Source of the DNA: Methanomassiliicoccales archaeon
GTDB taxonomy: Archaea; Thermoplasmatota; Thermoplasmata; SG8-5
Length of the DNA stretch: 33,296 nucleotides
NCBI GenBank assembly: GCA_030636255.1
Contig: DAOVXH010000001.1
Span: 1 to 33,296, forward strand
Direction: 5' to 3'
Both the position numbers and the translations under genes were made by a program. The notes beneath the pieces are model-generated. The model saw only the letters and a list, made by a program, of their open reading frames with translations, made no database searches and was not told the origin of the DNA. How positions within the stretch are numbered: the first letter of the stretch is position 1; every line of letters begins with the position of its first letter. Positions 9,889 through 21,604 of the stretch are shown here, in pieces.

Positions 9889-9938
9889 GAACAATAAAGC
9901 AGAGCTTATATGTCCTCATTCTGAAACGGTTATTGTTC
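9889..9938. repeat. 9-bp perfect inverted repeat GAACAATAA-N32-TTATTGTTC bridging two convergent gene ends (possible bidirectional terminator element)
   Basis: Read directly. The left arm starts one base after the argS stop. The right arm overlaps the stop codon of the minus-strand 182-aa ORF. The long loop makes a stable hairpin uncertain. Confidence 0.3.
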
Positions 9939-10485
9939 ACTCTTTCACAAAAGTCGTTCTGAGAGTTACTCCATTATTTGGCGTGAGAAAGCCAAGTGTA
10001 AGCGTGTCACCATCTATCTCATATTCGTATATTTGAGATTCTTCTGATAGGGTTTTATTGTTCCAGGTTATCTCGCCAGTGTCTGGATTGACTATTGGAT
10101 CCGGTATGGTTAAAATAGGATTATAATGATATGTAATTTCAATCTGATTATCATCTATGTATTCCCATGTCAAATCAACTCCAACGTCATAGATATCGGT
10201 ACTATTGCCAAGGGTGATTGTGCCGTCAGATTTAATCTCATAGTAATCACCTGTATCCGAGGTGTAAGTGTTATTAACACTACCATCCGGGTTCAATATC
10301 TCTGATTTTTCTACAATCCATTTCCCCTCCACACCAGGCCCTGACATGAGTATGAAGGCCATAATTAGAATAACAACAATTGTAATCGATACAATTCCAA
10401 TTATGATTCCATTTTTGCTCTTTGGCTTGGTCGGAGCTGGAGCATCTGGCACAGGTTCTGTTGAAATGTCTGTTTCATTGTTCAT
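9937..10485 (-). CDS. membrane-anchored extracytoplasmic protein, lipocalin-like beta-barrel pattern
   Basis: 182 aa. An N-terminal TM helix (IIIGIVSITIVVILIMAFILM) is followed by GKW...YYEIKSDGTITLG...WEYIDDNQIEI...YEYEIDGDTLTL, which resembles lipocalin-like/META-type small beta domains. GGTGGA lies upstream of the ATG. Confidence 0.6.
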   Translation of the reverse strand: MNNETDISTEPVPDAPAPTKPKSKNGIIIGIVSITIVVILIMAFILMSGPGVEGKWIVEKSEILNPDGSVNNTYTSDTGDYYEIKSDGTITLGNSTDIYDVGVDLTWEYIDDNQIEITYHYNPILTIPDPIVNPDTGEITWNNKTLSEESQIYEYEIDGDTLTLGFLTPNNGVTLRTTFVKE

Positions 10486-10542
10486 AATTCTCCACCTATG
10501 GCCATGTGAATGCGCAAGTTCTAATAAATAACTTGGGTTTTC

Positions 10543-11277
10543 TCATTTCACCCTGAAAAAACTTCTTGGCAAACGTTTTCCAATGCCCAGGAGCAAAACC
10601 CAGCGTGGTGGAAATTTGATTTTCATATGGCCTTTCAAAACCTTTTTTACAATATATTTTGCTGCTTTTTCTGGCTTCCAGGCACTTGGTATGGGTTTGT
10701 CTGTTTTCAGCATGGGGGTGTCCACCGGTCCCGGATAAATTAATGCGAATCTAATATTGTTCTTGTAATGCATGGCATCCAGGGATTCAAATGTATAGTT
10801 AAGTGCGGCTTTGCTGGAACCGTAGGCGGCAGAACCTGGCAGGGCAATAAATGACTGGAAAGATGAAGTTCCAACAAATGTTCCACCGCCATTTTTCTTC
10901 AATACTGGAACCCACTGGTCAATCCAGTTTATAACTCCGAAATAATTGGTTTCAAAAGTGCGTCTATGAAGTTCCAGGTTAAAATTTTCCTCTTCTTCAT
11001 CTCCGTCACCAGCATTCAGGTAAAACAATGATGGAAAAATGTTACTGGCTATTAGTTCTTTGGATGTGTTTTTTACTGAATCAAAATCGCTGACATCACA
11101 GACTTTGGGTATGAGTTTGTCCTGGCCCAAGGATTTAGCCAGGTTGTTTAATTCGTCACCACGGCGGGCAATGGCTATAACCTTCCAACCCCTGCCAACC
11201 ATCTCACAGGCTATGTGCTTTCCAATTCCAGAAGATGCTCCGGTCACAAGGCAATATTTGGGTATAGCCATATACAT
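10543..11277 (-). CDS. short-chain dehydrogenase/reductase (SDR)
   Basis: The TGASSGIGKH Rossmann motif, NAG, and the catalytic YGSSKAAL (YxxxK) are present. The start could be ATG 11277 or ATG 11271. Confidence 0.9.
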   Translation of the reverse strand: MYMAIPKYCLVTGASSGIGKHIACEMVGRGWKVIAIARRGDELNNLAKSLGQDKLIPKVCDVSDFDSVKNTSKELIASNIFPSLFYLNAGDGDEEEENFNLELHRRTFETNYFGVINWIDQWVPVLKKNGGGTFVGTSSFQSFIALPGSAAYGSSKAALNYTFESLDAMHYKNNIRFALIYPGPVDTPMLKTDKPIPSAWKPEKAAKYIVKKVLKGHMKIKFPPRWVLLLGIGKRLPRSFFRVK

Positions 11278-11299
11278 TGGGAACAGGGCACATCCTTAA

Positions 11300-12022
11300 C
11301 TATTTTTTGCTAATTACAGGGGGAGGCGGTGGCGGAGTGGGCATATCAGAGTTTAATCCATCTGGGAACAGTATTGGATAAATATCCCTGGAAAGCATCT
11401 CCATGTCCTTTCTGTACTTCAGGTAGCTTAGGAATATCAATAAGATTCCGATGATTGTCTGAAATCCAGATAAAATCAGAACTTCTGGTTCGTAAAGGGT
11501 GTTAATGAACGTGATACCAAGCAGCAACAGTATGATACCAATGATTATTATTGAGCCATAATATATCTGAAATATTTCCACAAGAGAGCGTTTCATCAGA
11601 GTGCTTCCCTCGGATAATTTGCTCTGAAAATCAATATACAATTGCATACGATTCCACCAGCTTTTCTTTCCCAGGGTGGTGTAGATGTATAGATAGACAA
11701 TCAGCAACAATGCCATGGCAATGGAAAGGTTCAGTGCACCACGGACAAGGTTTTGTGTGCTGTTGTAGGACTCAAATGATAAATACAGCTGGAAAACACC
11801 AATGGCAACAAGAATTCCAGATACCCCACAGATAGCACCCACTATTAGTTTCATGATGTTCAGGATAGACCTCTTGGACACTGCATCCACTCCTGGCATG
11901 TTCTTCATGGGATAACGGTATATTCTACAAGCATGACAGTACCAGTTGTTCATTTCTGAGTAATAAATCATTTCCTTGTGACACTTTGGGCAGCTCTCGG
12001 ACATATTGCACTCTCCAAGCAT
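11300..12022 (-). CDS. zinc-ribbon membrane protein with polyproline C-terminus (function unknown)
   Basis: 240 aa. An N-terminal CPKCHK...YCHACR zinc ribbon is followed by about four hydrophobic helices and a C-terminal PTPPPPPPV tail. Confidence 0.6.
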   Translation of the reverse strand: MLGECNMSESCPKCHKEMIYYSEMNNWYCHACRIYRYPMKNMPGVDAVSKRSILNIMKLIVGAICGVSGILVAIGVFQLYLSFESYNSTQNLVRGALNLSIAMALLLIVYLYIYTTLGKKSWWNRMQLYIDFQSKLSEGSTLMKRSLVEIFQIYYGSIIIIGIILLLLGITFINTLYEPEVLILSGFQTIIGILLIFLSYLKYRKDMEMLSRDIYPILFPDGLNSDMPTPPPPPPVISKK

Positions 12023-12056
12023 ATAATATGTTAAGATGATAAAATATTATGTATGA

Positions 12057-12521
12057 TTACAATATCAATTCATAGAATTTAATATCCTGGCCCCAGTAAT
12101 GTTCCTTGAAAAAACCAACTTCCTTGAACCCCATTGAGAGGTATAATTTAACTGCTTTTTCCAGTGCCGGGGTTGTGTCCAGCCAGACCTTGTTTGCGCC
12201 TCTTTCTTTTGCCAAATCTATAATAAACTGGGTGAGGGCTTTTCCAATGCCTTTTTTCTGGTAATCAGGATGCACAACCATCCTGTCCAGATGACATGTT
12301 CCGTGAGGGAACTGGCACCGAACAATGCCAATTATTTTGTTTTCTTCTCTGATAACAAAATAATCATTATTCTCCATATTAGTTGCAACCTGGCCAGCAT
12401 CTGGAATTCTATTGTCCATGAGGTCTGCTGGAAAATTTTCTCGATAGGGCGTCCATACGGTATTGTATAATTCTGAAATCTCCTGGGCATCCAGTTTTGT
12501 GGCTGGCTCTATTTCGCTCAT
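12057..12521 (-). CDS. GNAT family N-acetyltransferase
   Basis: The acetyl-CoA motif VHPDYQKKGIGKAL and a typical beta-strand pattern are present. I prefer ATG 12521 (MSEIEP...). The ORF also opens at TTG 12566, which overlaps the upstream stop as TTGA. Confidence 0.85.
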   Translation of the reverse strand: MSEIEPATKLDAQEISELYNTVWTPYRENFPADLMDNRIPDAGQVATNMENNDYFVIREENKIIGIVRCQFPHGTCHLDRMVVHPDYQKKGIGKALTQFIIDLAKERGANKVWLDTTPALEKAVKLYLSMGFKEVGFFKEHYWGQDIKFYELIL

Positions 12522-12562
12522 TGTTACAGGAATGAATTGGGAATTAATATGATTTCCGCCAT

Positions 12563-13204
12563 TCAAAAATCAGCAATTATCACACCAACAAGTGGATGAA
12601 CTTTTTCAATCTGACATTTTGCTCCAAGCTTTTCCAGATTATCAATTAATAATTCCACAGGGGCTGGAAAGTCAGTTTCTCCGCCATCATAGCCAGCCTT
12701 GTCAAAATCAGCAGTATGATTTTTCGGATTCTCAAAGAACATTAGGTCTCCAAGTACAAGTCTTCCCTGGTTCTGCAAAATTTCTGCCAGGTTTTTTATA
12801 GCAGCAGGTTTCATTTTATCAGGAAGATGATGCAAAGAATAGGTAGCCAGTATCTTTGTTATACCCTGTGAGGTAATATCCAGTTCTTCGGAAGGATTCT
12901 CAAATGAGCCCATTGCAAATGTAATATTTTTCAATGCCAGTTCTGAAGCCCTGGCCCTTGCGGTTTCCAGGCTTATCTGGCTTATGTCCATTCCAATTAC
13001 CCGAGAACAATATTTTGCAGCCTTGATGGCATTGTTTCCGTTTCCAGTTCCAATGTCCAGAAGAATATCTGTGGGAGATAATTCCAGACTATCAAGAGAT
13101 AATTGACTCACCCTGTCATGAATTGGGTCGCTGGCCCTGGCTGGACTATTCCAATTCTTCTCATCAAACATTTTGGCGACATTTTCCCGGTCATACTCTT
13201 GCAT
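12563..13204 (-). CDS. class I SAM-dependent methyltransferase
   Basis: Motif I LLDIGTGNGNNA and the post-I acidic residue (GMDIS) are present. I prefer ATG 13204 (MQEYDREN...), because the 13285 start would overlap the upstream 1027-aa gene by about 60 nt. Confidence 0.85.
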   Translation of the reverse strand: MQEYDRENVAKMFDEKNWNSPARASDPIHDRVSQLSLDSLELSPTDILLDIGTGNGNNAIKAAKYCSRVIGMDISQISLETARARASELALKNITFAMGSFENPSEELDITSQGITKILATYSLHHLPDKMKPAAIKNLAEILQNQGRLVLGDLMFFENPKNHTADFDKAGYDGGETDFPAPVELLIDNLEKLGAKCQIEKVHPLVGVIIADF

Positions 13205-13223
13205 ATTCAAAGGGTATTCAGCA

Positions 13224-16200
13224 TCAATCCTTGAACTTTTCCATATTATGATTGTACTGGGCTTCAGACAGACGACCTTCATCAAATGCTTTTTGAATTC
13301 TCACCCTGGCTGCTTCTTTATCAATTCCCGGGGAAGATTCTTGAACTGGCTCTGCTGGTTCCTTCATGGGTTTTTCTTCTTCTGGCAATTCATCCTTCTT
13401 CTTGGGTTTACCGGGCTTTTCCCTGCTGGTCAATACAATCACAAGTGCTGCAATAGCAATTCCAGATAACAGTACCACGTCAATCCATTTTGGTCGAGTG
13501 TCAGTTTCTATTTCAGAGGTATGGCCGCCGTCATCAACTGGACTCAGTTCAATCTCATAAAATTCTGTGATATTTTCATTACCATATACATCTGTAGCTA
13601 TTATTCTGTAATGGAAGTCTGTGTGGTCCAGTCCCACAGGGTATGCCTCTGCGGTGTAGGTATTGCCATCAGTATTGTTCATGTCAATGATGAAGTATGG
13701 AGAACAGGCCTGGGGCGTGCATGAAAAGTATGACATCTGTACTGATTCTATTTCACTGGTATCGCCCACCATAATCTCGATGCTTATCTGCTGGTCTGCA
13801 TCTGGGTGGTCTGGAGCATATGTTGGATTGATTATCTGCGGTGGCGCAATGTCATCCTTTACATCGACCTCAACAGTGGAATATGTTTGTATTGTAAGGT
13901 CAGAAACATCAATGGCATGAACCTTGAATTTGTCTGTCTGGCCGTTCCATGTGATGTTTCCGGTAACTGCCAGGTCGAAGCTTGTGCTGGACTCTGCAGG
14001 AATGGAAAGCGAGATCTGGGAAAACTCTGTGTCCCAGTTTGATGGGGCATCCACAGAAAGATTGACTGTAACCTGGAAATACATGTAATTGTGAAGAGTG
14101 AATTCAAATTCTGCCGTGCTATTTGGCAATGCGGATTTTTCTGGTTCCTGGGCAATCATGTAAAGCTCATCTTCACCTTCTGGAACAATCATGAAACTGT
14201 TTACCTGAACACCATTCTGCCAGGCAACTACTACTAGGCCAATATTTCCAAGCCGTAAATCATTGAACTGAACTGCTGAGGTATTGGTCCATGAGCTTTC
14301 AATATCAAGTGTCTCGCCTGCTGGAACAGTGTATGTGTCGTTTACAAGGATGTCAATAAAAGCGTTTGGTATCGGATGGCCCTGATAATTAAGCCAGCGT
14401 GATGATTTCTCCACAAGGAATGCTTCCACAAGAATTGTTTCATCAGAATCTCCGTGATTGCCAATTGATACAACTGTGCCCAGTATTCTTGAAAGGTCAG
14501 TAAACTGGCCTCCGAATGTCAAATTCAAATCTGCCATACTTGTTGATTTAATTTCTGTCAGGTATTCATTGTATGCTGATGAAGCACTGGATGCGCCAAT
14601 TATCTCCCCTGGACCCCCGGCAAACACTGCCCAGGGGTGACCAATATCACCATCTATATTCAGCTTATTCGCCAGAGTCTCCTCTCTGTAAGACGCATAC
14701 TGGCCAGATAGGCCCGGAGCATCTGTTACAAAGGTTGCAAAAGAAGTTTCTCCCTCCTTTTCAAGATCTACAAGGGCATCCTCACTCTTATTGCAATTGA
14801 CACATCCCAGATCAACATAAAGTTCAGTGAACACTAGCTTGTCTGATGGCACAATTGGACCTATTGGGCTGTCAGTTATAACATGCCTAGCTAATGCATC
14901 TGCAAGTGATGTGTTAAGGTTCTCTCGCTTGCTGGCTCCCTGGTCTGCCGATGAACCATACTGGGTATTGTAGATTATTTCCGGTTCAGTACCGTTCATT
15001 TCCACGATTATGGTTGTGAACATTGGCACTCCAAATCGTGAGTCAGGGGAACCAGCAAAGTCATAGACATCGTAACTTGCGTCTTCCTCTGCTGTTGCAT
15101 GGTCCAGGTTGATGTGGACGAACTCAATTTCATTGCCATATTCCTCTTCCAGAATGGCAATATGCGGCTCCATCTCATCGCAACCTGAACACACATCAGT
15201 ACGATAATGCAAGAATACTGGTTGGGTTGGAAGGACTTCTGTTACTAAGGTAGGTTGCGTCCCTTCAGAAGAGCGCCATTCATTCACAACATTTGGGTCA
15301 AGGGCCAGACAGCCAAGGCAAGGTATGGCGTTTATCTCGTCAGTTCGGTCATATCCGCCCATCATGACTCCGGCAGTAAGCATTGACGCGCTTCCAAGAA
15401 GGAGAACTATCCAGATAACTGCCATTTTATTGTTCTTGAAAGGCATTATTCCTAATTTTAATGAGCCAAATTTACAGCTGGTAACACATCTGCCGCAGAG
15501 AATGCACTCCATGTCCTCTTTTGTGCCTACCTGCTTGATATCCATTGGACATGTAGCATCACAGACATTGCAACTCTTGCATGTGTCTTCATTGCGCCGC
15601 ACCCCAATGGCAGAGACCTTGTTCCAGGGAGCCAGGTATGCTCCAATAGGGCAGAGATACTTGCACCAGCCTCTTGTTACCAGAATAATTAGAATAGTGA
15701 AAAGAATCATTGATGTAAGCTTCACAGGGAAGCCGCTTCCAAACAGCCATTCGCTTGAATAAAATGTCAGGGTGGGAAGTGTGCCGGTTATTCCCCCAAT
15801 GGGGCATAATGCCGTGTAAAACAGCTCCTGAGAGAGAAATGCAGTGACAGGTACAGCCAGGAGCATTAGAAACTTCATGTGTTTCCATTTTGGATTCACA
15901 TTTGGTTTGAGCTTATTATCCACTTTTTTACTTATACCCAGTTTTCTTGATAAGTCCTGAAGTGCACCAATTGGACATGCCCAGCCACAGAACGCCCTGC
16001 CAAAAAGTACACCCATGAGGGACAGGAATCCAAAAAGGTAAAGCAGCATTGAGAGGCCTACCATGAAGGTTATCTGGATATCAATGAACCCATGCTCCAT
16101 TATGCCAAGAGGGCAAGAACCAACATCCCAGGGGCATGAATAGCAGAAGAAATAGGGATAGATGAGACCAGTGGTGGTTATGCCTGCCAGGCCCAGCAAG

Positions 16201-16253
16201 GTAATTGCCAGAAATGCAATCTGGGTTGTCCTTCTCAGTGTGGGGATTTTCAA
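13224..16253 (-). CDS. giant membrane protein: NapH/NosR/MauN-like polyferredoxin membrane module, two extracytoplasmic CxxC thioredoxin-fold domains, Ig-like domains, C-terminal TM and a SHOCT-like cytoplasmic tail
   Basis: CxxxCP(L/I)G-type motifs lie beside TM helices: CPWDVGSCPLG, FCGWACPIGALQD, LCPIGG, RGWCKYLCPIGA. Two ferredoxin motifs follow, CKSCNVCDATCP and CILCGRCVTSC, then a TM helix (MAVIWIVLLLGSASML). After that come CLGC (15309-15320), CSGC (15180-15191) and CVNC (14793-14804) in Trx-like contexts. The last TM helix is WIDVVLLSGIAIAALVIVLT. The start is uncertain: TTG 16253 is preceded by GAGG and lies just after the upstream stop, while the maximal ORF opens at TTG 16307. Confidence 0.8.
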   Translation of the reverse strand: MKIPTLRRTTQIAFLAITLLGLAGITTTGLIYPYFFCYSCPWDVGSCPLGIMEHGFIDIQITFMVGLSMLLYLFGFLSLMGVLFGRAFCGWACPIGALQDLSRKLGISKKVDNKLKPNVNPKWKHMKFLMLLAVPVTAFLSQELFYTALCPIGGITGTLPTLTFYSSEWLFGSGFPVKLTSMILFTILIILVTRGWCKYLCPIGAYLAPWNKVSAIGVRRNEDTCKSCNVCDATCPMDIKQVGTKEDMECILCGRCVTSCKFGSLKLGIMPFKNNKMAVIWIVLLLGSASMLTAGVMMGGYDRTDEINAIPCLGCLALDPNVVNEWRSSEGTQPTLVTEVLPTQPVFLHYRTDVCSGCDEMEPHIAILEEEYGNEIEFVHINLDHATAEEDASYDVYDFAGSPDSRFGVPMFTTIIVEMNGTEPEIIYNTQYGSSADQGASKRENLNTSLADALARHVITDSPIGPIVPSDKLVFTELYVDLGCVNCNKSEDALVDLEKEGETSFATFVTDAPGLSGQYASYREETLANKLNIDGDIGHPWAVFAGGPGEIIGASSASSAYNEYLTEIKSTSMADLNLTFGGQFTDLSRILGTVVSIGNHGDSDETILVEAFLVEKSSRWLNYQGHPIPNAFIDILVNDTYTVPAGETLDIESSWTNTSAVQFNDLRLGNIGLVVVAWQNGVQVNSFMIVPEGEDELYMIAQEPEKSALPNSTAEFEFTLHNYMYFQVTVNLSVDAPSNWDTEFSQISLSIPAESSTSFDLAVTGNITWNGQTDKFKVHAIDVSDLTIQTYSTVEVDVKDDIAPPQIINPTYAPDHPDADQQISIEIMVGDTSEIESVQMSYFSCTPQACSPYFIIDMNNTDGNTYTAEAYPVGLDHTDFHYRIIATDVYGNENITEFYEIELSPVDDGGHTSEIETDTRPKWIDVVLLSGIAIAALVIVLTSREKPGKPKKKDELPEEEKPMKEPAEPVQESSPGIDKEAARVRIQKAFDEGRLSEAQYNHNMEKFKD

Positions 16254-16266
16254 TTCAAGGCCTCGC

Positions 16267-18513
16267 TCATGATTTAGATCCAGGATATATAAGTACCACT
16301 GCAACAAGGATTGCGGCTATGGCAATTATTGCAATTACTGCCATTGTAGATGGGTCCTGAGTCTCTGCTTCATGCTCTGAGATTTCCGGATTGAGTGGTG
16401 CGGCATCATCTTCATCAAGAACACCGTCATCATCATCGTCGTCATCCTCATTGTTTCCAATGCCGTCATCATCGGTGTCTGTGTCCTCATTTTCATCCAG
16501 AGGGAATGCGTCTTCAGCATTTTCCACACCATCGCCATCAATGTCTGCATCTTCACCATTATTTGTGCCATCATTGTCAGTGTCCAGTGGCATTGTGTCC
16601 GAGATATCTGGAATTCCATCGCCATCATCGTCCTGGTCCATTGAATTCACAAGTCCATCATTGTCAGTGTCCATTGGGTACGGGTCCTCTGTGGCATCAT
16701 CCAGACCGTCACTGTCATCGTCCAGGTCTGCATTGTCACCTATATCATCACCATCATAGTCTGCCCATTCGGTATCGTCCAGTGGGAAAGCATCCAGATC
16801 ATTGTTAACATCATCGCCATCAATATCCTGGTCTGAATTATCACCAATGTCATCACCATCCAGGTCAGACCATTCGGTGGAGTTCAGTGGGAAGGCATCT
16901 TCATTGTCAGGGACATCGTCATTATCATCATCTTCATCCTCATTGTCACCTGTTTCATCGCCGTCTGTATCTGTGGTTTCATCAGGGTTCAATGGAAAAT
17001 CATCTTCCGAGTCAGGAACACCGTCATCATCGTCATCCAGGTCATCAATATCTGCGGTTCCATCGCCATCAAAATCTTCCAGAACTTCAAATTCTTTCCA
17101 GGCAATATTGTTCAGCTCGGAGCTTTCTTCTATCTCTCCTGCAGGGTCAGCCTCAACGGTTATGTTGTGGGTTCCAATTACCTGGAGCCAGGTAAGACCA
17201 TTTTCCATCCATTCACCTGGTGCAATTGTGTATCTGCTGGAATCCAGCAACTCACCATCCAGGGAAATATTTATCTGGGCATCCACAGCAGTTGCGATAC
17301 CATAATTGTAAACTGCAATTCCAACATGAAGGTCCACACCACCTACCTGGTTACCTGTCAATGTGATGTTCAATGGAGATGCAACCAAATCAGGTAAAGG
17401 CACAGCAACAACCATGAATACAGTATCATTCCAGGCAGTTATGCTGTATGTTGGACATACTGCTGTTATATTTACAGTGAAATCTCCGGTAATATTGGGA
17501 GAATTAATCTGTGCAGCATAATCACCATTGGCATCGGTTGCAACAATCCAGGAATCTCCGGTCTCTGGTATTTCCACTGTGACTTCCAGGCCTGCTGGTG
17601 CCGGTGCTCCGTCCAGTGTCACTGTTCCACTTGCCCATAATTGCTGCTCTGGGAGTGTTGTGGTTGTATTCAAATGCAAACTGGCATCAATTACAGGCAA
17701 AACCACATCAAATTGCGGTTCCGCATATCCAGTTATGCTTCTCACAACAGTATCATTCTGCACCGTGATATTCACTTCATATGAATCAGGGGTGGTTGGT
17801 GCAGTTATTTGAAGACTGTAATTTCCCTCAAGGTCTGTCTTCAGCTCATGGGTGTCGCCTCCTACCTTGATTGTGACATTTGTGGTTTCCATTGGAATTG
17901 TGTTGTTCCATGCCCCGGCCTCGGAATAGGTATGATTTGCAGTTCCATTTATCCATACATCCTGGCCTGGGTAAACTGTTGTAGGTTCAACCTGGGCAGT
18001 TACCTCTGTGTTTGTTGGAGGATTCTGAAATGTTCCCGAATTAATAGTAGCGTTCTCTGGCCACCAGAATACCTGGCCAGTGTCATCTTCAAATGTGATA
18101 TTGTAATTGACATAAATACCAGCCCCCCAGGAATCATCATTCCACCAGGACTTGTACCATAATCCGTATAGATTGCCACCCAAATGATCCATATCATCCT
18201 GGTACCATCCATAACATGCAGGAGAAAACATGGCAAGGCATTCGGCCGGAGTGCAGAATTCATTATTCACCTGGACCCTGACCAGAGGATTATCACTATC
18301 TATCTCTGCATAAATATATAGTTGATCCCCATCATTGCCCCAATCTGGAGTGTCTGGCCATATGAATCCTACGGGATTCTCCGGCACCTGGGTGATATTA
18401 CTCACACTAATAGAATTGGTGGTTGTTGGAATTTCGCTCGCTTGTGCAAGACCTATGAAAAACCCGGACATAAGAAGAAATCCAAGTATCATACTAGCTA
18501 TTCTAAACTTCAT
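16267..18513 (-). CDS. surface protein: signal peptide, beta-sandwich domains, CARDB domain, thrombospondin type 3 (Ca-binding) repeat array, C-terminal TM anchor
   Basis: The signal-like N-terminus is MKFRIASMILGFLLMSGFFIGLAQA. Two CarboxypepD_reg-like segments are present (TDLEGNYSLQI, TDANGDYAAQI). A CARDB-like segment follows (PDLVASPLNITL...NYGIATAVDAQINISLDG...ELNNIAW). Six or more DAFPLD..(E/T)W.D.DGDDIGDN units follow, then a C-terminal hydrophobic helix AVIAIIAIAAILVAVVLI. ATG 18513 lies 5 nt after GGTGA; the ORF track starts at GTG 18522. Confidence 0.85.
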   Translation of the reverse strand: MKFRIASMILGFLLMSGFFIGLAQASEIPTTTNSISVSNITQVPENPVGFIWPDTPDWGNDGDQLYIYAEIDSDNPLVRVQVNNEFCTPAECLAMFSPACYGWYQDDMDHLGGNLYGLWYKSWWNDDSWGAGIYVNYNITFEDDTGQVFWWPENATINSGTFQNPPTNTEVTAQVEPTTVYPGQDVWINGTANHTYSEAGAWNNTIPMETTNVTIKVGGDTHELKTDLEGNYSLQITAPTTPDSYEVNITVQNDTVVRSITGYAEPQFDVVLPVIDASLHLNTTTTLPEQQLWASGTVTLDGAPAPAGLEVTVEIPETGDSWIVATDANGDYAAQINSPNITGDFTVNITAVCPTYSITAWNDTVFMVVAVPLPDLVASPLNITLTGNQVGGVDLHVGIAVYNYGIATAVDAQINISLDGELLDSSRYTIAPGEWMENGLTWLQVIGTHNITVEADPAGEIEESSELNNIAWKEFEVLEDFDGDGTADIDDLDDDDDGVPDSEDDFPLNPDETTDTDGDETGDNEDEDDDNDDVPDNEDAFPLNSTEWSDLDGDDIGDNSDQDIDGDDVNNDLDAFPLDDTEWADYDGDDIGDNADLDDDSDGLDDATEDPYPMDTDNDGLVNSMDQDDDGDGIPDISDTMPLDTDNDGTNNGEDADIDGDGVENAEDAFPLDENEDTDTDDDGIGNNEDDDDDDDGVLDEDDAAPLNPEISEHEAETQDPSTMAVIAIIAIAAILVAVVLIYPGSKS
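16384..17079 (-). repeat. tandem imperfect coding repeats (thrombospondin type 3 / DxDxDGxxDxxD calcium-binding units), ~232 codons
   Basis: Repeated D(A/D)FPL(N/D)...D.DGD.IGDN.D.D.DGD units are visible in the translation. The DNA is GAT/GAC-rich with matching periodicity. The opposite strand yields long Ser- and His-rich pseudo-ORFs. Confidence 0.85.
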
Positions 18514-18571
18514 TATATTCACCTATTTTTAATGGAATTTGTGAGAGATTAAGTATTTCAAATATTAAAAG

Positions 18572-18602
18572 ATGAGAGAGGGGACAGTGCCCCCCATCTC
18601 AT
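18572..18602 (-). terminator. hairpin plus T-run immediately downstream of the 806-aa gene
   Basis: On the minus strand the sequence reads TAA-ATA-ATGAGA-TG-GGGG-gcactgt-CCCC-TC-TCTCAT-C-TTTT. Two stem segments (6 bp and 4 GC pairs) are followed by TTTTAATATTT. The promoter and GGTGA of the 751-aa gene follow. Confidence 0.55.
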
Positions 18603-18605
18603 TAT

Positions 18606-21023
18606 TTAGACGTCTACAGTCCAGATTACAAATGCATCTACATGTATCCAGTATGCATTACCCTCTGCCAGGTCTACCTGAGTCAAATCACTCTCGTCAA
18701 CAATATATGGTGATGCTGCCTGGTATTCTGCAATCCTATCTGCTCCAGTTCCAAGCAATGAGTCAAAGGCATTTTCACCAATTGCTGATGGATATCCAAC
18801 AAGATTCCAGCCAGGATAGAGCGTGACTCCCACCGGGGCTGCCGAGTAATCGCCATCAATGCCTGTTGTCAGGACTCCGCCATCATGGGCAGTCAAGTGA
18901 AGCCAAATACCCATGCTGTTGGTGAGCATTGGCATGTCACTGAGACCAGGGCTATTTCTGCTGTGTGTCCTCCAAGGATGAAGTGTGTCATTTGCATCAA
19001 ACCACTTGGCAATATCCCATGTTGTGCCTCCATCTGCATCTGTAAGTACTGTCTCAATATCCCCGGTCATAGCATATGGGAATGAGACAAATACCCAGCT
19101 TCCTGGGCCTGCTGCTACAGGAATCGGAATGTCATACGGAGCCAAGATAGGTTCCACACCGGAGCCTATGGTGAAATCAAAATTGCTTATATCTTCGGTT
19201 ACCAAACTCTCTGAGTCTGTGGCAACTACCCTTATCCTGCAGACAGACGAATCAATACTTGGTGTTGTCCAATAGTGAATTCCATCATTGACAGTTCCGG
19301 TTGTGATTGCCTGCCATGTTGCTGTTGGGTAATCCGTACAATAATAGATGTCTATTCCATTTTCAGGAATATCAACATCATGTGCATCCCATCGGATGAT
19401 TACATCCTCTGCCTGGGCAAATGTCTCGCCGCCATTGGGGAACGTGACTTCAACCTCTGGAGGTATTGCCGCATTCTGCCAGGTTAGAATTCTTGTTAGA
19501 ACAGTTTCATCATCAGAATCTGCATCGATGGTATCGGTCATGACGAAATAATCACCGCCAAAGAATACTGTCCTTCCACCGCCTGAGTGAATCGAACGAA
19601 CTGCCATGTTTGGACCATTGTCATAAGTGAAACAGACAGTGCCACCTATTTCTGCGGTAATAGAGTCTGGAGTACCTGCACTGGTGTTCACAGGAAGACC
19701 CGAAAGTCCGTCACCAATTGGATCGCTTGCAATACCATTGAATGATGTACCACCGGAATCACCTGCAGCAAATGAGGTTTTGAAATTCGTTTGAAGCCAT
19801 GAGTTCCAGCCATTGGAATTTGCGTCCTCAGCTATGTTTGAACCTGTGAGGAATGCATTACCACCGCCAATCAAATAGTCCTGAAGATTAGTTCTGTCTG
19901 CCACATCAAGTGTTGTGGTATCAGGGCCAGTATACCAGATTACAGTTGAATATTTCTGTAGGTCTGCCAGGGTAGGCATGGTCTTAACATTTAGAAGGGC
20001 TGTATCAGTTGCTTCAATTGTGTCCCAGGTTCTGGCCTTTACTCCAATTTTAACCAGTTCTTCTACAATATAGTCTGCATTGTCATCAATGGCATCGGTT
20101 CCATCACCATTAACCAGTAAAACCTCTGCATCCACAAATTCGTGCTTGGCTGCTTGAAGTATCGGAAAATTGTGATAGGTATCTTTACCTTGTTTGTAAT
20201 CGTAATTTGTTGTGGATTGAACCATTGTAACTGCGGAAATATCTCTGGGATCCATGTCAGGATACCATGCGGGGTCAAGTGCAAATGAGATATTGTACTC
20301 AAGGTGTGTCCCAACACCGATTCCGCCAGGAAGGGCTATAGGATCTAGGATATCCCTGCAAACGCCATTGTAAACCCTGTGATGGCCATATACTTCATTT
20401 GTATTGGCATCGAAGTGATGTTTTGTGGATTCCATTATCACAGTGGTGAGTTCCAGGGAGCTTTCTGTAGGAACATCAGTAAAATCAAGGATAACATGCA
20501 GATTGCCGTTCAATCCCTCGATATCTCCCTCAATATCAATTGTGCATGGGGCTCCTGCTCCTGCGCCAGTTGTTTCCTCTAGGTAGTCGGCTTTGTCAGC
20601 AACATATACATCATATTTATCATAACCTCCAGAGCCCCTTAAGTGTATATCTGTGTACGGGCCACCGCCATCAAATATTACAGATGGAATTCCAGGAACT
20701 GCGTATTTATTTGCCCTAGGAATTACATCTGGAACGGTAAATTCATCAGATGTGTGGTATTCAATTATTATGGGCCCATTTGGGTAATATTCTTCATATA
20801 ATCTTTCCATTGAATGTGTCTGTGTTGGACAATAAGGACACCAATCAGATGTGAATTGTTCGACAACTACAGTTCTGGGAGAAGAACCTGCATATATCAC
20901 TGGTGGCTCGTCAATTACATCAACTGAAGTCTCGCCTGTATCTGTTCCCGCACTCACCAACGCTAACCCACTCATAATCATAGAGATAGCAAGTATGCTT
21001 GCCATCAACTTAATACCCTTCAT
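18606..21023 (-). CDS. secreted protein: Omp28-like/thioredoxin-fold CPYC domain, GATase1/ThuA-like domain, Ig-like domain, and a 176-aa C-terminal domain shared with the S8 protease
   Basis: The signal-like N-terminus is MKGIKLMASILAISMIMSGLALVSA. VVVEQFTSDWCPYCP contains the CPYC at 20829-20840. The KYSTVIWYTGPD...LQDYLIGGGNAFLTG pattern follows, then FPNGGETF...IRWD. The C-terminus ends GNAYWIHVDAFVIWTVDV. ATG 21023 lies 7 nt after GGAGG; the ORF track starts one codon earlier at TTG 21026. Confidence 0.85.
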   Translation of the reverse strand: MKGIKLMASILAISMIMSGLALVSAGTDTGETSVDVIDEPPVIYAGSSPRTVVVEQFTSDWCPYCPTQTHSMERLYEEYYPNGPIIIEYHTSDEFTVPDVIPRANKYAVPGIPSVIFDGGGPYTDIHLRGSGGYDKYDVYVADKADYLEETTGAGAGAPCTIDIEGDIEGLNGNLHVILDFTDVPTESSLELTTVIMESTKHHFDANTNEVYGHHRVYNGVCRDILDPIALPGGIGVGTHLEYNISFALDPAWYPDMDPRDISAVTMVQSTTNYDYKQGKDTYHNFPILQAAKHEFVDAEVLLVNGDGTDAIDDNADYIVEELVKIGVKARTWDTIEATDTALLNVKTMPTLADLQKYSTVIWYTGPDTTTLDVADRTNLQDYLIGGGNAFLTGSNIAEDANSNGWNSWLQTNFKTSFAAGDSGGTSFNGIASDPIGDGLSGLPVNTSAGTPDSITAEIGGTVCFTYDNGPNMAVRSIHSGGGRTVFFGGDYFVMTDTIDADSDDETVLTRILTWQNAAIPPEVEVTFPNGGETFAQAEDVIIRWDAHDVDIPENGIDIYYCTDYPTATWQAITTGTVNDGIHYWTTPSIDSSVCRIRVVATDSESLVTEDISNFDFTIGSGVEPILAPYDIPIPVAAGPGSWVFVSFPYAMTGDIETVLTDADGGTTWDIAKWFDANDTLHPWRTHSRNSPGLSDMPMLTNSMGIWLHLTAHDGGVLTTGIDGDYSAAPVGVTLYPGWNLVGYPSAIGENAFDSLLGTGADRIAEYQAASPYIVDESDLTQVDLAEGNAYWIHVDAFVIWTVDV
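18609..19139 (-). repeat. dispersed coding repeat, copy 1 (C-terminal domain shared with 26449-26976)
   Basis: The two C-termini align end to end. About two thirds of residues are identical by eye, and similarity is visible at the DNA level. Confidence 0.85.
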
Positions 21024-21054
21024 CAATTTTCCTCCAATCTCTTATTCTTATTAT

Positions 21055-21114: not shown

Positions 21115-21232
21115 TTTTGGCTTTAATATTTAACCTTTCTCGCAGACATTTTCAAAAACCTCAATAATTGATAGACGCCTATGGCAGAAACACTTATATT
21201 TAATAAGAAAATGTGAAGATGGAGGCTTGAAA

Positions 21233-21604
21233 ATGACTGTCGCATGTGAAAAAATGGTAAGGTATGTTCTTCCCTGGATAAGAAAAGAATTCTCCATTAT
21301 AATGGTCAATGAATTGAAATTATCCCAGGTAAAGGTAGCAAAAAAACTGGAGGTCACTGAGCCTGCCATATCACAGTATCTTTCTTCAAAGAGGGGAGAT
21401 GAGATTAAAATTGAGGATGAGAAGATTGTAATTGCAGTCAGAGAGGCAGCCATTCGGATAAGTGATGACAATAGTGGCCTAAGCAGAGAGATATGCCAGA
21501 TTTGCAGATTAATAAGAATTTCAAATGCCATTCCAGATGTGTACAGGCCAAAGGTCGGTGCAGTGGAAGAGTTTGATGAATGTGTCTGTGATACATTCGA
21601 ATAA
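21233..21604 (+). CDS. small HTH transcriptional regulator (XRE/COG2522-like) with C-terminal Cys pairs
   Basis: LSQVKVAKKLEVTEPAISQYLSSKRG is a classic helix-turn-helix. The C-terminal part has CQIC and CVC. GGAGG (21221-21225) lies 7 nt upstream of ATG 21233; the ORF track starts at TTG 21227. Confidence 0.8.
   Translation: MTVACEKMVRYVLPWIRKEFSIIMVNELKLSQVKVAKKLEVTEPAISQYLSSKRGDEIKIEDEKIVIAVREAAIRISDDNSGLSREICQICRLIRISNAIPDVYRPKVGAVEEFDECVCDTFE

Follow-up and report, generated by a model that had tools for sequence, protein, structure and literature searches.

Three adjacent surface-protein genes of Thermoplasmatota as a candidate cell-surface thiol-redox module centred on a NapH-type Fe-S membrane protein

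Do three large, neighbouring surface-protein genes of a marine archaeon act together, and if so, in what chemistry? The genes, designated A, B, and C, are co-directional neighbours in the window, the stretch of 33,296 nucleotides from a Methanomassiliicoccales archaeon (GCA_030636255.1, contig DAOVXH010000001.1) that was analysed here; features lie on its minus strand unless stated otherwise. The ORF positions agreed with the arrangement of three consecutive genes described in an earlier note on this DNA, with A at 18606-21026 (806 aa), B at 16267-18522 (751 aa), and C at 13224-16307 (1027 aa as a mechanically defined ORF). For B, the ATG at 18513 is the likelier start, giving 748 aa (16267..18513). 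For C, the previously suggested TTG at 16253, which lies 13 nt past the TGA of B (16267-16269), is the homologue-supported start, given that residue 1 of the query pairs with residue 1 of its homologues; the resulting protein has 1009 aa (13224..16253), and its numbering is used below. The spacer between A and B contains a GC-rich hairpin with a T-run (18566..18608), followed by an AT-rich, TATA-like stretch ahead of B, as had also been described. The hairpin was the top-ranked terminator-like site (MFE -21.2 kcal/mol; z = -4.4 versus shuffles), and a hairpin with a T-run, differing in stem sequence, occupied the equivalent position in 8 of 10 related loci.

C is a fusion protein that combines a NapH-like Fe-S membrane module with thioredoxin-fold and Ig-like domains on the outside, and a TM helix anchors its C-terminus. 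Its homologues comprised approximately 25 full-length clusters (39-73% identity), all from Thermoplasmatota MAGs, and its AF2 model had a mean pLDDT of 82.6. Residues 1-297 (15363..16253) matched Pfam Fer4_5 (1.5e-15) as well as the NapH and NosR families, with scores for the latter two under the family cut-offs (TIGR02163 NapH/MauN, 1.8e-24). This module, which also gave profile matches to ferredoxins in the PDB and was aligned with E. coli NapH, contains four TM helices with the CX3CP motifs C89/C93 and C197/C201, a predicted cytoplasmic 2x[4Fe-4S] ferredoxin domain (C225-C260), and a fifth TM helix at approximately 277-297. A charge census (positive-inside) fitted an N-in topology, in which the Fe-S domain is cytoplasmic and loops 1 and 3, like the PCLGC motif, are external. 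Four additional conserved cysteines, absent from E. coli NapH, are predicted to face outward: a C-x2-C-P-x6-C-P motif at residues 37-48 (16110..16145), invariant or nearly so in alignment A1 of the C homologues, is joined by C150-P151 (15801-15806). Of the best 150 matches, 146 were newly retrieved, and 114 of these have the motif; the AF2 model is least confident in this region, where pLDDT is low. As judged from sequence, C thus appears to be a NapH-type membrane electron-transfer protein with external thioredoxin domains, in keeping with the earlier suggestion of a membrane electron-input protein. The NapH-type module itself and its Cys motifs had been overlooked.

The external part of C opens directly past the fifth TM helix with the invariant sequence PCLGCLALDP (residues 311-320, 15294..15323; invariant columns in A1: P311, C312, L313, G314, C315, L316, A317, L318, and P320). 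A classical thioredoxin domain follows at residues 330-455 (14889..15266), with profile matches to thioredoxins in the PDB (E = 1.5e-5) and to Pfam Thioredoxin (1.8e-3); its active site C355-x-x-C358 (CSGC) and a cis-Pro-like loop, G408-V409-P410, are invariant in A1. The next module, at residues 470-700 (14154..14846), is of the HBP35/DUF1223/Omp28 type and consists of a thioredoxin-like part with CVNC (C484/C487) and a beta-sandwich; it matched PDB 2axo by profile (E = 5e-3) and by Foldseek (E = 2.5e-7, TM 0.63), and HBP35 (5y1a) by Foldseek (E = 6e-8). Residues 701-905 (13539..14153) form Ig-like beta-sandwich domains, all-beta in the AF2 secondary structure, and the last of these (806-905) carries the invariant pair C845-x4-C850, which reads CTPQAC in the window. 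In the numbering of the 1027-aa ORF, CSGC, CVNC, and CTPxxC are located at 373, 502, and 863, respectively. According to hydropathy and the AF2 helix, the protein ends with a TM helix (924-942) and a cytoplasmic tail that is variable and unconserved in A1 (residues 924-1009, 13227..13484). Among homologues of 39-73% identity, every external Cys pair is kept without exception. PCLGCLALDP is the fourth invariant external CxxC and was missed in the earlier note.

The protein encoded by A begins with a signal peptide, which is followed by an HBP35/Omp28-type thioredoxin module (20157-20909) with invariant C63-P-Y-C66; between this module and the C-terminal domain of 190 aa (18609-19181) lie a middle domain of unassigned fold (19467-20144) and an Ig-like domain (19182-19466). 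It matched the NCBIfam Omp28-related selenoprotein family (1.9e-10), and its best solved relative is HBP35 (PDB 5y1a; profile E = 7.4e-6, spanning 300 residues). A contains seven cysteines. A subtilase in the same window has a C-terminus with 64.6% identity to the C-terminal domain of A, and both this domain and part of the middle region recur in that subtilase and in large proteins of related loci.

Protein B, which also begins with a signal peptide, contains only four cysteines. Its N-terminal beta-sandwich (18013-18435) bears the invariant Cx4C pair C87/C92 (CTPxxC at residue 90 of the 751-aa ORF), and Ig-like domains separate it from a CARDB domain (about 17104-17394; PDB 2l0d, 2.5e-12). 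An acidic array (about 16378-17085) then precedes the C-terminal TM anchor (16288-16344). The array comprises seven D-rich repeats of approximately 35 aa, each closing with FPL(N/D), and is predicted to bind Ca. The earlier assignment of a TSP3 array was upheld by matches to COMP (6e-5) and thrombospondin-2 (4e-3) in the PDB; the array matched NCBIfam MtsC at 4e-13 and Pfam TSP_3 at E = 0.003, which is under the cut-off. Anchoring was likewise as previously described, in that B and C possess C-terminal TM helices and A has only an N-terminal signal-like segment.

Modules common to the three proteins had been proposed from their motifs. Pairwise BLASTP among A, B, and C yielded nothing significant (E > 0.1), whereas profile-profile comparison (hhalign) detected two related pairs: the thioredoxin module of A with the second module of C (95.2%, E = 2.6e-8), and the N-terminal Cx4C domain of B with the last external domain of C (86.2%, E = 4.9e-6). 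Nearly all of approximately 45 control domain pairs scored below 6%. The proposal of three matching Trx/Omp28-like segments held for A and the second segment of C, which is HBP35/DUF1223-like; the first segment of C is of a different type, a classical thioredoxin, and is not homologous to the module of A. CTPxxC does occur in both B and C, but the conserved motif is C-x4-C, with both cysteines invariant in the two families and the proline variable.

We then considered whether the neighbourhood is conserved. B lies directly upstream of C, with a gap of at most 30 nt, in all 16 loci with a fused C gene that allowed assessment; this adjacency persists down to approximately 40% C identity and is also present in a relative with a split C gene (L013). 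A was found in 13 of the 15 fused-C loci that permitted judgement, being missing from L008 and L184, and is thus not obligatory. A reciprocal search with B returned trio loci only, with no B homologue away from C. A CcdA/DsbD_2-like gene, absent from this window, is an extra neighbour in six or seven loci and reinforces the thiol-redox theme. The earlier reading of the three genes as a functional unit therefore stands as regards a conserved trio, two shared modules, and an electron-transfer type of protein for C; it fails as regards a dedicated regulator. The divergent gene in question (21227..21604, plus strand; 125 aa) encodes an XRE-type HTH (Pfam HTH_3, 1e-3) with a C-terminal CxxC...CxC, and its family is pan-archaeal, with 351 matches over many archaeal groups that are usually located elsewhere. 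Its homologues adjoin the cluster only in L001 and L013; the trio accompanied a homologue in one of the 80 best loci, which is a close relative's own contig, and four trio-carrying MAGs have the homologue on a separate contig. In other trio loci, an unrelated 165-aa ACT-like gene takes the divergent position. The HTH gene, although adjacent here, was accordingly ruled out as a conserved part of the system. The downstream genes, which had been left as possible members of the unit, are lineage-specific neighbours outside the conserved core (methyltransferase, GNAT, Zn-ribbon protein, and SDR): the GNAT gene is a neighbour only in the closest relatives (L001-L004, L181, and L183), and only L001 has the methyltransferase and Zn-ribbon genes as neighbours.

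We propose, with a probability of roughly one half, that A, B, and C constitute a conserved module for thiol-redox chemistry at the cell surface of Thermoplasmatota, in which C would serve as an Fe-S transmembrane electron conduit feeding thiol-disulfide exchange at the surface. The observed basis for this reading is domain architecture, Cys invariance, predicted topology, synteny, the pattern of gene fission and fusion, and module homology; the labels "redox system" and "adhesion" for the trio are ones that we infer. C would be the engine, its NapH-type module carrying electrons across the membrane through Fe-S clusters by way of the cytoplasmic 2x[4Fe-4S] domain, the two inner-face CX3CP motifs, and the four extra outer-face cysteines, at which an Fe-S site is conjectured from Cys spacing. 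Outside, electrons may pass from the PCLGC pair to the classical thioredoxin domain and on to the HBP35/DUF1223-type CxxC module. A and B would be partners or clients of C: B as a membrane-anchored stalk of Ig-like domains and the predicted Ca-binding TSP3-like array, with a tip Cx4C like that of the last external domain of C, and A as a secreted thioredoxin protein that resembles HBP35 and has a C-terminal domain of the surface-attachment type. Surface Cys pairs might in this way be kept reduced or reshuffled, or external substrates reduced, and the trio would then correspond to the CcdA/DsbD to TlpA/ResA reducing pathway, with Fe-S clusters as its basis. It looks like a previously undescribed link between cell-surface thiol chemistry and the electron supply of the cell. 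HBP35 has shown cysteine-dependent thioredoxin activity in vitro (PMC2907840).

Gene fission and fusion among relatives of C speak for this reading as Rosetta-stone evidence. In distant relatives (L011-L014), the NapH-like part and the TM-PCLGC-thioredoxin part are encoded by adjacent, partly overlapping genes, and the PCLGC motif opens the thioredoxin protein right after its TM helix. The same NapH-like subfamily has been independently fused to a TlpA/ResA-type redoxin (WCGPC) in at least 15 representative clusters; a pattern scan for this fusion gave at least 599 genome matches, the best 80 loci being nearly all from gut or rumen Clostridia. Given that TlpA-type domains are reductases, these fusions argue for outward reducing flow. 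NapH proper, on the other hand, is tied to the oxidation of quinol, whose reducing power does not suffice for typical thioredoxin disulfides, so that outward reduction in C would need a low-potential cytoplasmic donor. The Cx4C pairs could be purely structural disulfides, and co-localisation of surface genes can stem from common regulation or export instead of a common chemistry. A CcdA-like conduit beside the cluster would also be redundant with a reducing NapH-thioredoxin protein.

That conduit suits at least as well an oxidative folding machine, in which C would be a DsbB/VKOR-like thiol oxidase with DsbA-like external thioredoxin domains. Newly exported cysteines of surface proteins, A and B among them, would be oxidised, and their electrons would travel inward via PCLGC and the NapH-type module, either to the quinone pool or to an acceptor in the cytoplasm; the six or seven loci with the CcdA-like gene would then have an oxidase and a reductase rather than two redundant routes for reductant. 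The layout of C copies that of bacterial VKOR-thioredoxin fusions, in which a fifth TM helix connects a 4-TM redox module with a thioredoxin domain on the outside. Dithiol-to-quinone transfer is moreover thermodynamically downhill, and surface-ocean Thermoplasmatota are generally held to be aerobes that export many large proteins. NapH proper is quinol/quinone-linked, according to the part of PMC8238504 that cites Brondijk. We nevertheless regard this alternative as unlikely. In the clostridial fusions, the partner of this NapH-like subfamily is a TlpA/ResA-type domain with the reducing WCGPC site, and the hosts are strict anaerobes, many of which are without quinones; a quinone-linked oxidase has no need of a cytoplasmic 2x[4Fe-4S] ferredoxin-like domain; and A and B, with seven and four cysteines, offer few to oxidise.

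A and B might instead be adhesins or S-layer-type proteins that stand by chance beside a membrane redox protein, with modules acquired by domain shuffling, which the recurrence of regions of A in the subtilase and other large proteins indicates to be common here. The terminator-like hairpin parts A from B and C, A is absent in two loci, and "thrombospondin" genes have already been counted among the adhesion traits of Marine Group II (PMC6461757). Such chance proximity is rather improbable, however, in view of the tight B-C spacing held to approximately 40% C identity and in the split-gene relative, the confinement of B homologues to the vicinity of C, and the fact that the modules shared with C are exactly those bearing invariant Cys pairs. 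Metal or haem handling, with C reducing surface Cu(II), Fe(III), or haem iron in the manner of CcoG or assimilatory metal reductases, A binding haem or metal like HBP35, and the Cx4C domains acting as metal sites, seems distinctly improbable. Iron is scarce in surface seawater, and CcoG, a member of the same Fer4_5 superfamily, likewise has a C-terminal external Ig-like domain; the match of C to TIGR02745 (CcoG) was, however, weak (E = 2.4e-3) and spanned only approximately 50 residues. The best solved relative of A is a hemin-binding protein (PMC2907840), and thioredoxin-like proteins accompany P19/FTR1 iron-uptake clusters (PMC8238504), yet no transporter, P19, FTR1, Sco, or cupredoxin gene was found within the window or the conserved neighbourhood, and the invariant features are thioredoxin-type paired cysteines, with no His or Met metal ligands found.

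The proposed thiol-redox module can be set against several known systems. C shares with NapH/NosR/PceC-type "NapH-like" proteins (Pfam Fer4_5, PF12801) the four TM helices, two CX3CP motifs, and C-terminal cytoplasmic 2x[4Fe-4S] domain, and such proteins are seen as modular transmembrane electron-transfer units for extracytosolic redox domains, while thioredoxin-like, cytochrome, and flavinylated carriers seem able to replace one another (PMC8238504). C differs in bearing a C-terminal thioredoxin-fold chain where the described systems have a NapG ferredoxin or an N-terminal FMN-binding domain flavinylated by ApbE, and its subfamily differs from E. coli NapH in the four predicted outer-face cysteines; no nitrate reductase, N2O reductase, or dehalogenase gene was found near C. 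The CcdA/DsbD pathway to TlpA/ResA/CcmG/Etrx resembles the proposed trio in leading from a membrane conduit through anchored external CxxC thioredoxin-fold proteins to surface or periplasmic clients, but DsbD is not homologous to C and has a transmembrane Cys pair in place of the proposed Fe-S clusters. VKOR-thioredoxin fusions and DsbB-DsbA share the topological plan of C, with a membrane-surface Cys pair relaying to a thioredoxin site, but are unrelated in sequence, react directly with quinone without Fe-S clusters, and operate in the oxidising direction. The thioredoxin-like plus beta-sandwich CxxC unit of Porphyromonas gingivalis HBP35, Omp28, and DUF1223 (Atu2684, PDB 2axo) corresponds to the N-terminal 300 residues of A and the second module of C, with remote sequence similarity (E = 1e-5 to 1e-2). 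HBP35 is a surface protein with thioredoxin activity and a separate C-terminal attachment domain (PMC2907840); the archaeal C-terminal domain of A is unrelated to its type IX secretion CTD. Ferredoxin:thioredoxin reductase, in which a [4Fe-4S] cluster beside a redox-active disulfide allows one-electron transfer by Fe-S to drive the two-electron reduction of a thioredoxin disulfide, offers a mechanistic analogy only: the putative outer-face cluster and PCLGC of C would need chemistry of this type, but the reductase is not homologous and is a soluble cytoplasmic or plastidial enzyme. The uncharacterised clostridial fusions (for example, P0168 and P0163) share with C the NapH-like subfamily with its outer-face Cys motif and a TM helix followed by an external thioredoxin-fold domain. 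They differ in having a single TlpA/AhpC-TSA-type redoxin with WCGPC, in lacking the PCLGC motif, HBP35-like module, Ig-like domain, and second anchor of C, and in having an unrelated 300-aa membrane protein as conserved upstream neighbour in place of A- or B-type genes; their hosts are anaerobic bacteria, whereas those of C are archaea.

Among the three consecutive minus-strand genes for large surface proteins in the window, designated A, B and C, gene C (13224–16307) was listed as an ORF of 1027 aa. An in-frame TTG at 16253 is located 13 nt past the TGA stop codon of gene B (16267–16269) and, given that homologues start exactly at this TTG, C is most likely a protein of 1009 aa, the form to which the residue numbers refer. 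The N-terminal part of C is a membrane polyferredoxin of the NapH/MauN/NosR type (Fer4_5, 1.5e-15; TIGR02163, 1.8e-24, below the family cut-offs), with four TM helices, two CX3CP motifs and two ferredoxin-type four-Cys motifs. The Pfam match to Fer4_5 covers two stretches and reached 57.3 bits, compared with a cut-off of 22, and the motifs C89-x3-C93-P, C197-x3-C201-P, CxxCxxCxxxCP and CxxCxxCxxxC are invariant in the C family. On sequence grounds, C is a member of the NapH-like Fer4_5 superfamily as described in PMC8238504, with Fer4_5, CX3CP, TM helices and a C-terminal 2x[4Fe-4S] domain all present.

Closer assignments of C were rejected. Scores for the NapH/MauN models TIGR02163 and NF007013 were 86.7 bits (cut-off, 213) and 75.9 bits (cut-off, 234), respectively, as for a relative at the superfamily level only. 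A functional NapH with a NapG partner was rejected because none of the nap genes sought (napG, napA, napB and napC, with the annotated E. coli nap operon as the comparison) was found in either the window or the 16 loci related to it. A flavinylated system of the NosR/PceC type was rejected because C, A, B and the other window proteins scanned gave no Pfam match to FMN_bind or ApbE. For the cupric reductase CcoG/FixG, the match to TIGR02745 amounted to 16.9 bits, relative to a cut-off of 316.7, and covered ~50 residues. Given these cut-offs and the genomic context, C is not a NapH, NosR or CcoG protein. Nor was it retained as a DsbD/CcdA protein, for which we sought the six-TM DsbD_TM/DsbD_2 domain and two transmembrane Cys residues and obtained no DsbD match in C.

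Alignment of E. coli NapH with the C subfamily showed that the CX3CP and ferredoxin motifs are common to both. Four further Cys residues are conserved in the archaeal and clostridial proteins and absent from E. coli NapH: three form C37-x2-C40-P-x6-C47-P in loop 1, and the fourth is in C150-P, where TM3 ends. Among the best 150 hits, 146 were newly retrieved, and 114 of these carry the loop-1 motif. Mean numbers of Lys plus Arg residues in 22 homologues were 2.9 for the N-terminus, 6.5 for loop 2 and 14.5 for loop 4, compared with 0.0 and 0.6 for loops 1 and 3, respectively, and these counts therefore place the four extra Cys residues, together with the Cys pair of a PCLGC motif, on the outer face of the membrane. 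Judging by the "CP" signature and the spacing, the outer face may house a fourth Fe-S site or else a thiol relay. Confidence of the AF2 model for C was lowest in loop 1, which would fit a cofactor site and proves nothing.

Outside the membrane, TM5 of C is followed, in order, by PCLGCLALDP, a classical thioredoxin domain (Trx1, residues 330–455), a second thioredoxin-like module (Trx2, residues 470–700), all-beta domains, a Cx4C beta-sandwich, a TM anchor and a variable cytoplasmic tail. All external Cys pairs (C312/C315, C355/C358, C484/C487 and C845/C850) are invariant in 22 full-length homologues with 39–73% identity. Trx1 matched thioredoxins in the PDB in a profile search (E 1.5e-5). Its C355/C358 pair and G408-V409-P410 are invariant, and the AF2 model of C (33-sequence alignment; mean pLDDT, 82.6) has a strand at 346–351 and then a helix from 356. 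With its CxxC placed where helix 1 starts, a cis-Pro-like loop and a match to solved thioredoxins, Trx1 is predicted from sequence and model to be a redox-active thioredoxin fold. Trx2 matched the DUF1223 structure 2axo both by sequence (E 5e-3) and in a Foldseek search with the C model (E 2.5e-7; TM, 0.63), and in the latter it also matched HBP35 (5y1a; E 6e-8). Foldseek with the whole model otherwise retrieved mostly generic tandem-Ig proteins, so that these two matches alone were informative. In motif, beta-sandwich and profile and structure matches, Trx2 is a member of the HBP35/Omp28/DUF1223 thioredoxin-like family.

The pairing of a NapH-like module with a thioredoxin domain is found in several forms. 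In four related loci (L011–L014), each part has a gene of its own; the two genes are adjacent and overlap in part, with the first encoding a NapH-like protein of ~280–330 aa and the second a TM helix, a PCLGC motif and then the thioredoxin domain of C. An exhaustive phmmer search with residues 1–460 of C against 1.84 billion representatives yielded 6400 relatives, only three of which span both parts collinearly. A motif scan of the best hits identified at least 15 representatives in which the NapH-like subfamily of C is followed by a TM helix and then by a redoxin of the TlpA/ResA type (NFWATWCGPC), the TlpA-type redoxin being confirmed above Pfam cut-offs. Scanning of one-genome-per-species assemblies with these fusions retrieved at least 599 relatives, and nearly all of the best 80 loci are from gut or rumen Clostridia. 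The pairing thus arose at least twice and also occurs split, and it therefore provides Rosetta-stone evidence of functional coupling. In 53 of 72 of the clostridial loci (L017–L096), a gene for a conserved membrane protein of ~300 aa precedes the fusion on the same strand (for example, L052 5097–5999, plus strand). Pfam gave no match for this protein, which may be a partner in the bacterial form of the system.

Gene A (18606–21026, minus strand) encodes 806 aa in the ORF list. Hydropathy analysis revealed only a signal-like segment at its N-terminus, and strong C-terminal TM helices in B and C. The N-terminal 300 residues of A matched HBP35 of Porphyromonas gingivalis (5y1a) over 300 residues (E 7.4e-6), and A matched the Omp28-related selenoprotein model NF045500 at 1.9e-10, below the cut-off; C63/C66 are invariant. 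As judged from its E-x-F/Y-T...CxxC(P) motif, beta-sandwich and profile match, A is a member of the HBP35/Omp28/DUF1223 thioredoxin-like family. HBP35 is located at the cell surface and, in vitro, shows thioredoxin activity that depends on its cysteines (PMC2907840). Functionally it is marked by hemin binding, for which there is no defined sequence motif, and by a type IX secretion C-terminal domain. The middle and C-terminal domains of A had no sequence match in Pfam or the PDB, and the AF2 model of A (6-sequence alignment; mean pLDDT, 48.5) was too poor for use.

The last ~190 aa of A (window 18609–19196, minus strand) are 64.6% identical (E 3e-71) to the C-terminus (26455–27012, minus strand) of a subtilase-domain protein, a 1679-aa ORF at 26446–31485 on the minus strand. 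This domain, whose end reads ...GWNLVGYP...GNAYWV..W.V, is also the last part of large secreted proteins at L003 20802–22862 and L004 14066–20608. In these archaea it looks like a C-terminal domain for surface attachment or sorting that has not been described before. Residues ~350–460 of A (window ~19650–19980), which belong to its unassigned middle domain, are 32% identical (E 2e-7) to an interior region of the subtilase (window 27931–28281, minus strand); given this second matching stretch, A and the subtilase have two modules in common.

Gene B (16267–18522, minus strand) encodes 751 aa, or 748 aa from an ATG at 18513. B consists, in order, of a signal peptide, a Cx4C domain (C87/C92 invariant), Ig-like domains, CARDB, an acidic repeat stalk and a TM anchor. 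Its tail comprises seven repeats of ~35 aa with 36% Asp, each with an FPL(N/D) end, and contains ten D-x-D-x-D motifs. The match of the repeats to Pfam TSP_3 was weak (17.8 bits, below the cut-off of 25). Matches to MtsC (4e-13, below the cut-off) and, in comparison of the profile with structures, to COMP (6e-5) and thrombospondin-2 (4e-3) were clearer. The stalk is a candidate TSP3-like array that may bind Ca.

Word-indexed homologue searches provided 5–8 relatives for A and 4 for B. Pairwise BLASTP between A, B and C yielded nothing significant (E > 0.1), and we therefore turned to profiles: alignments of each family, made from related loci, were divided into 12 domain blocks, which hhalign compared in every combination between proteins. 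The thioredoxin module of A matched Trx2 of C (95.2%, E 2.6e-8, 169 columns) and the N-terminal domain of B matched the Cx4C domain of C (86.2%, E 4.9e-6). CARDB of B matched the sandwich part of Trx2 at 48%, the thioredoxin module of A matched Trx1 at only 20%, and the remaining pairs did not exceed 5.2%. The sharing of modules proposed in an earlier note on this DNA, which was made from sequence alone, is thus detectable by profile-profile comparison, with the first two pairs standing out. That note had treated all thioredoxin-like segments as one module type, which holds for A and Trx2 and not for Trx1, which is of a different type. It had also recognised a domain shared by B and C through a CTPxxC motif; the domain is indeed shared, and the conserved form of the motif is Cx4C, given that the Pro varies.

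A genome scan with the C profile identified 16 loci (L001–L016), all in Thermoplasmatota MAGs, and a metagenome scan added four (L181–L184), two of which are near-duplicates of L003 and L004. These loci, which are MAG contigs and include some near-duplicates, were compared by tblastn with the window proteins and by inspection of ORFs. B directly precedes C, at a distance of at most 30 nt, in all loci with a fused C (L001–L010, L016 and L181–L184) and also in L013. An A-type protein, with an N-terminal E-D-F-T-x-W-x-C-x-x-C motif and the C-terminal domain of A, is encoded upstream of B in every locus that could be assessed apart from L008 and L184, in which XPD abuts B. A reciprocal scan with B retrieved trio loci only, all already known. 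The three genes constitute a conserved neighbourhood. A six-TM gene of the CcdA/DsbD_2 type (Pfam, 7e-10) lies beside the cluster in L004 (11146–11928), L006 (13129–13893), L007 (12975–13736), L009 (12768–13529), L013 (3298–4008), L182 (~8722–9447) and L183 (~11397–12176), and the window contains no homologue of it. The encoded protein has an N-terminal G-x-R-K-G-A-S-S-C-L-A-L-C-x-P-S motif, and the gene is usually located just 3' of the cluster on the opposite strand.

In the window, genes for a methyltransferase (probable start at 13204), a GNAT protein, a multi-TM Zn-ribbon protein that has a Pro-rich tail, an SDR and a TM protein of 182 aa follow 3' of C (9937–13285, minus strand). Neighbouring genes in this run either overlap or are separated by at most 57 nt, and the run looks like a single long transcription unit that is not kept beyond the closest relatives. 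GNAT is found 3' of C only in the closest relatives (L001–L004, L181 and L183), and the methyltransferase and Zn-ribbon protein only in L001; on the basis of the locus comparison, the methyltransferase, GNAT, Zn-ribbon protein and SDR were rejected as conserved members of the system. The genes that flank the cluster are archaeal housekeeping genes: proteasome, FttA, PurM, PyrBI, aRF1 and ArgRS genes to one side, and XPD to the other. The window contains no tRNA or Rfam match.

The spacer between A and B contains, according to the sequence and a terminator-site scan, a GC-rich hairpin, a T-run and then an AT-rich stretch. Given that the total number of terminator-like sites in the window did not exceed that in shuffles, only this hairpin was considered, with a test of its own: its folding energy was −21.2 kcal/mol (z = −4.4 relative to dinucleotide shuffles). 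A sigma-70 promoter scan is not applicable to archaea. The spacer is ~50–140 nt across related loci, and a strong hairpin with a T-run opens it in 8 of 10. The stem sequence varies by locus while the hairpin persists, which marks the structure as the conserved element; it probably serves as a terminator or attenuator and so separates A from B and C. The gene layout, the positions of CxxC and CTPxxC, the TM anchors of B and C and the hairpin with T-run were all as described in the earlier note, according to the ORF list, hydropathy analysis and motif scans.

A divergent gene for an HTH protein (window 21227–21604, plus strand; 125 aa with a C-terminal CxxC...CxC motif) had been proposed as a dedicated regulator of the trio. 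A homologue accompanies the trio only in L001, where it is divergent, and in L013, where it is co-directional and upstream of CcdA–A–B–C. A scan with the HTH profile retrieved 351 relatives, including proteins of Methanomicrobiales, Bathyarchaeia, Woesearchaeota and Thermoplasmata, and the trio is adjacent in one of the best 80 HTH loci, that on the L001 contig; in four trio-bearing MAGs, the homologue is on a different contig. Dedicated control by the HTH protein is therefore not supported. The divergent position upstream of A is occupied in L003–L007 by an unrelated 165-aa ACT-like gene (weak ACT match; 59–84% identity among loci) on the minus strand of each locus (L003 4061–4555, L004 138–632, L005 3590–4090, L006 3591–4088 and L007 3334–3834). 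The HTH relatives keep the C-terminal CxxC...CxC motif (CxxC...CxxC in L013), which may bind metal or sense redox state in this pan-archaeal family of regulators. In a bathyarchaeial locus (L108), a NapH-like gene (29–661) encoding a protein 28% identical to residues 79–266 of C lies ~1 kb from an HTH homologue (1712–2017), the sole such case among the 80 best HTH loci outside the close relative.

We propose that electrons would enter C at the cytoplasmic 2x[4Fe-4S] domain and cross the membrane via the CX3CP-bound and outer-face sites to the PCLGC disulfide, which would be reduced by chemistry like that of ferredoxin:thioredoxin reductase. The relay would then run from PCLGC to Trx1 and on to the HBP35-type module Trx2, with the Cx4C domain at the tip of B and the secreted thioredoxin protein A as clients or partners. 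The main competing explanation is a flow in the reverse direction, with C acting as an oxidase similar to DsbB/VKOR. The VKOR-Trx-like topology of C, the quinol link of NapH and the CcdA-like gene often next to the cluster, which an outward flow would make redundant, all speak for such an oxidase. An outward reducing flow is favoured because the independent fusions make use of TlpA-type WCGPC reductase domains in anaerobes and because the cytoplasmic ferredoxin-like domain suits a low-potential donor. Reduction of metal or haem by the C system and plain co-location of surface-protein genes are lesser alternatives to this outward flow. In its general form, our tentative reading, to which we assign a probability of about 0.35, is that NapH-type proteins with the extra four-Cys site at the outer face provide a third, Fe-S–based route, besides DsbD/CcdA and DsbB/VKOR, that joins extracytoplasmic thiol-disulfide chemistry to cellular electron pools. 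Such proteins would have been recruited independently in Thermoplasmatota, where they are fused to a thioredoxin relay, would operate with the dedicated surface proteins A and B and would let proteins for adhesion or substrate capture be switched by redox state, and in many Clostridia of the gut, where they are fused to TlpA-type reductases.

To our knowledge, the textbook routes that power thiol-disulfide chemistry outside the cytoplasm all rely on either the cysteine relay of DsbD/CcdA or the quinone-linked oxidases DsbB/VKOR. Surface proteins of marine Thermoplasmatota with "thrombospondin" repeats, so far read as adhesins alone, would gain a redox partner, which suggests that attachment or extracellular substrate processing may be under redox control. 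The proposal also bears on the question, posed by NapH and NosR, of how cytoplasmic Fe-S clusters communicate with redox partners across the membrane. Given that the same module is fused to TlpA-type reductases (at least 599 matches, with the best 80 loci almost all from gut or rumen Clostridia), the proposal is testable in tractable proteins.

Full-text literature searches, whose coverage is incomplete so that the result is absence of evidence only, did not turn up any paper that connects NapH-like proteins with fusions to thioredoxin or TlpA. NapH-like proteins have been described as modular transmembrane electron-transfer units that are usually fused to flavinylated FMN-binding domains, with thioredoxin-like, cytochrome and flavinylated carriers noted as interchangeable (PMC8238504); NapH-like/thioredoxin fusions are not described there. 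The "thrombospondin" genes of Marine Group II have been recorded as adhesion traits, without a redox link (PMC6461757). The trio combines two known kinds of system in a new form and, if the proposal is true, an Fe-S "wire" to external thioredoxin domains differs from both the DsbD/CcdA and the DsbB/VKOR solutions.
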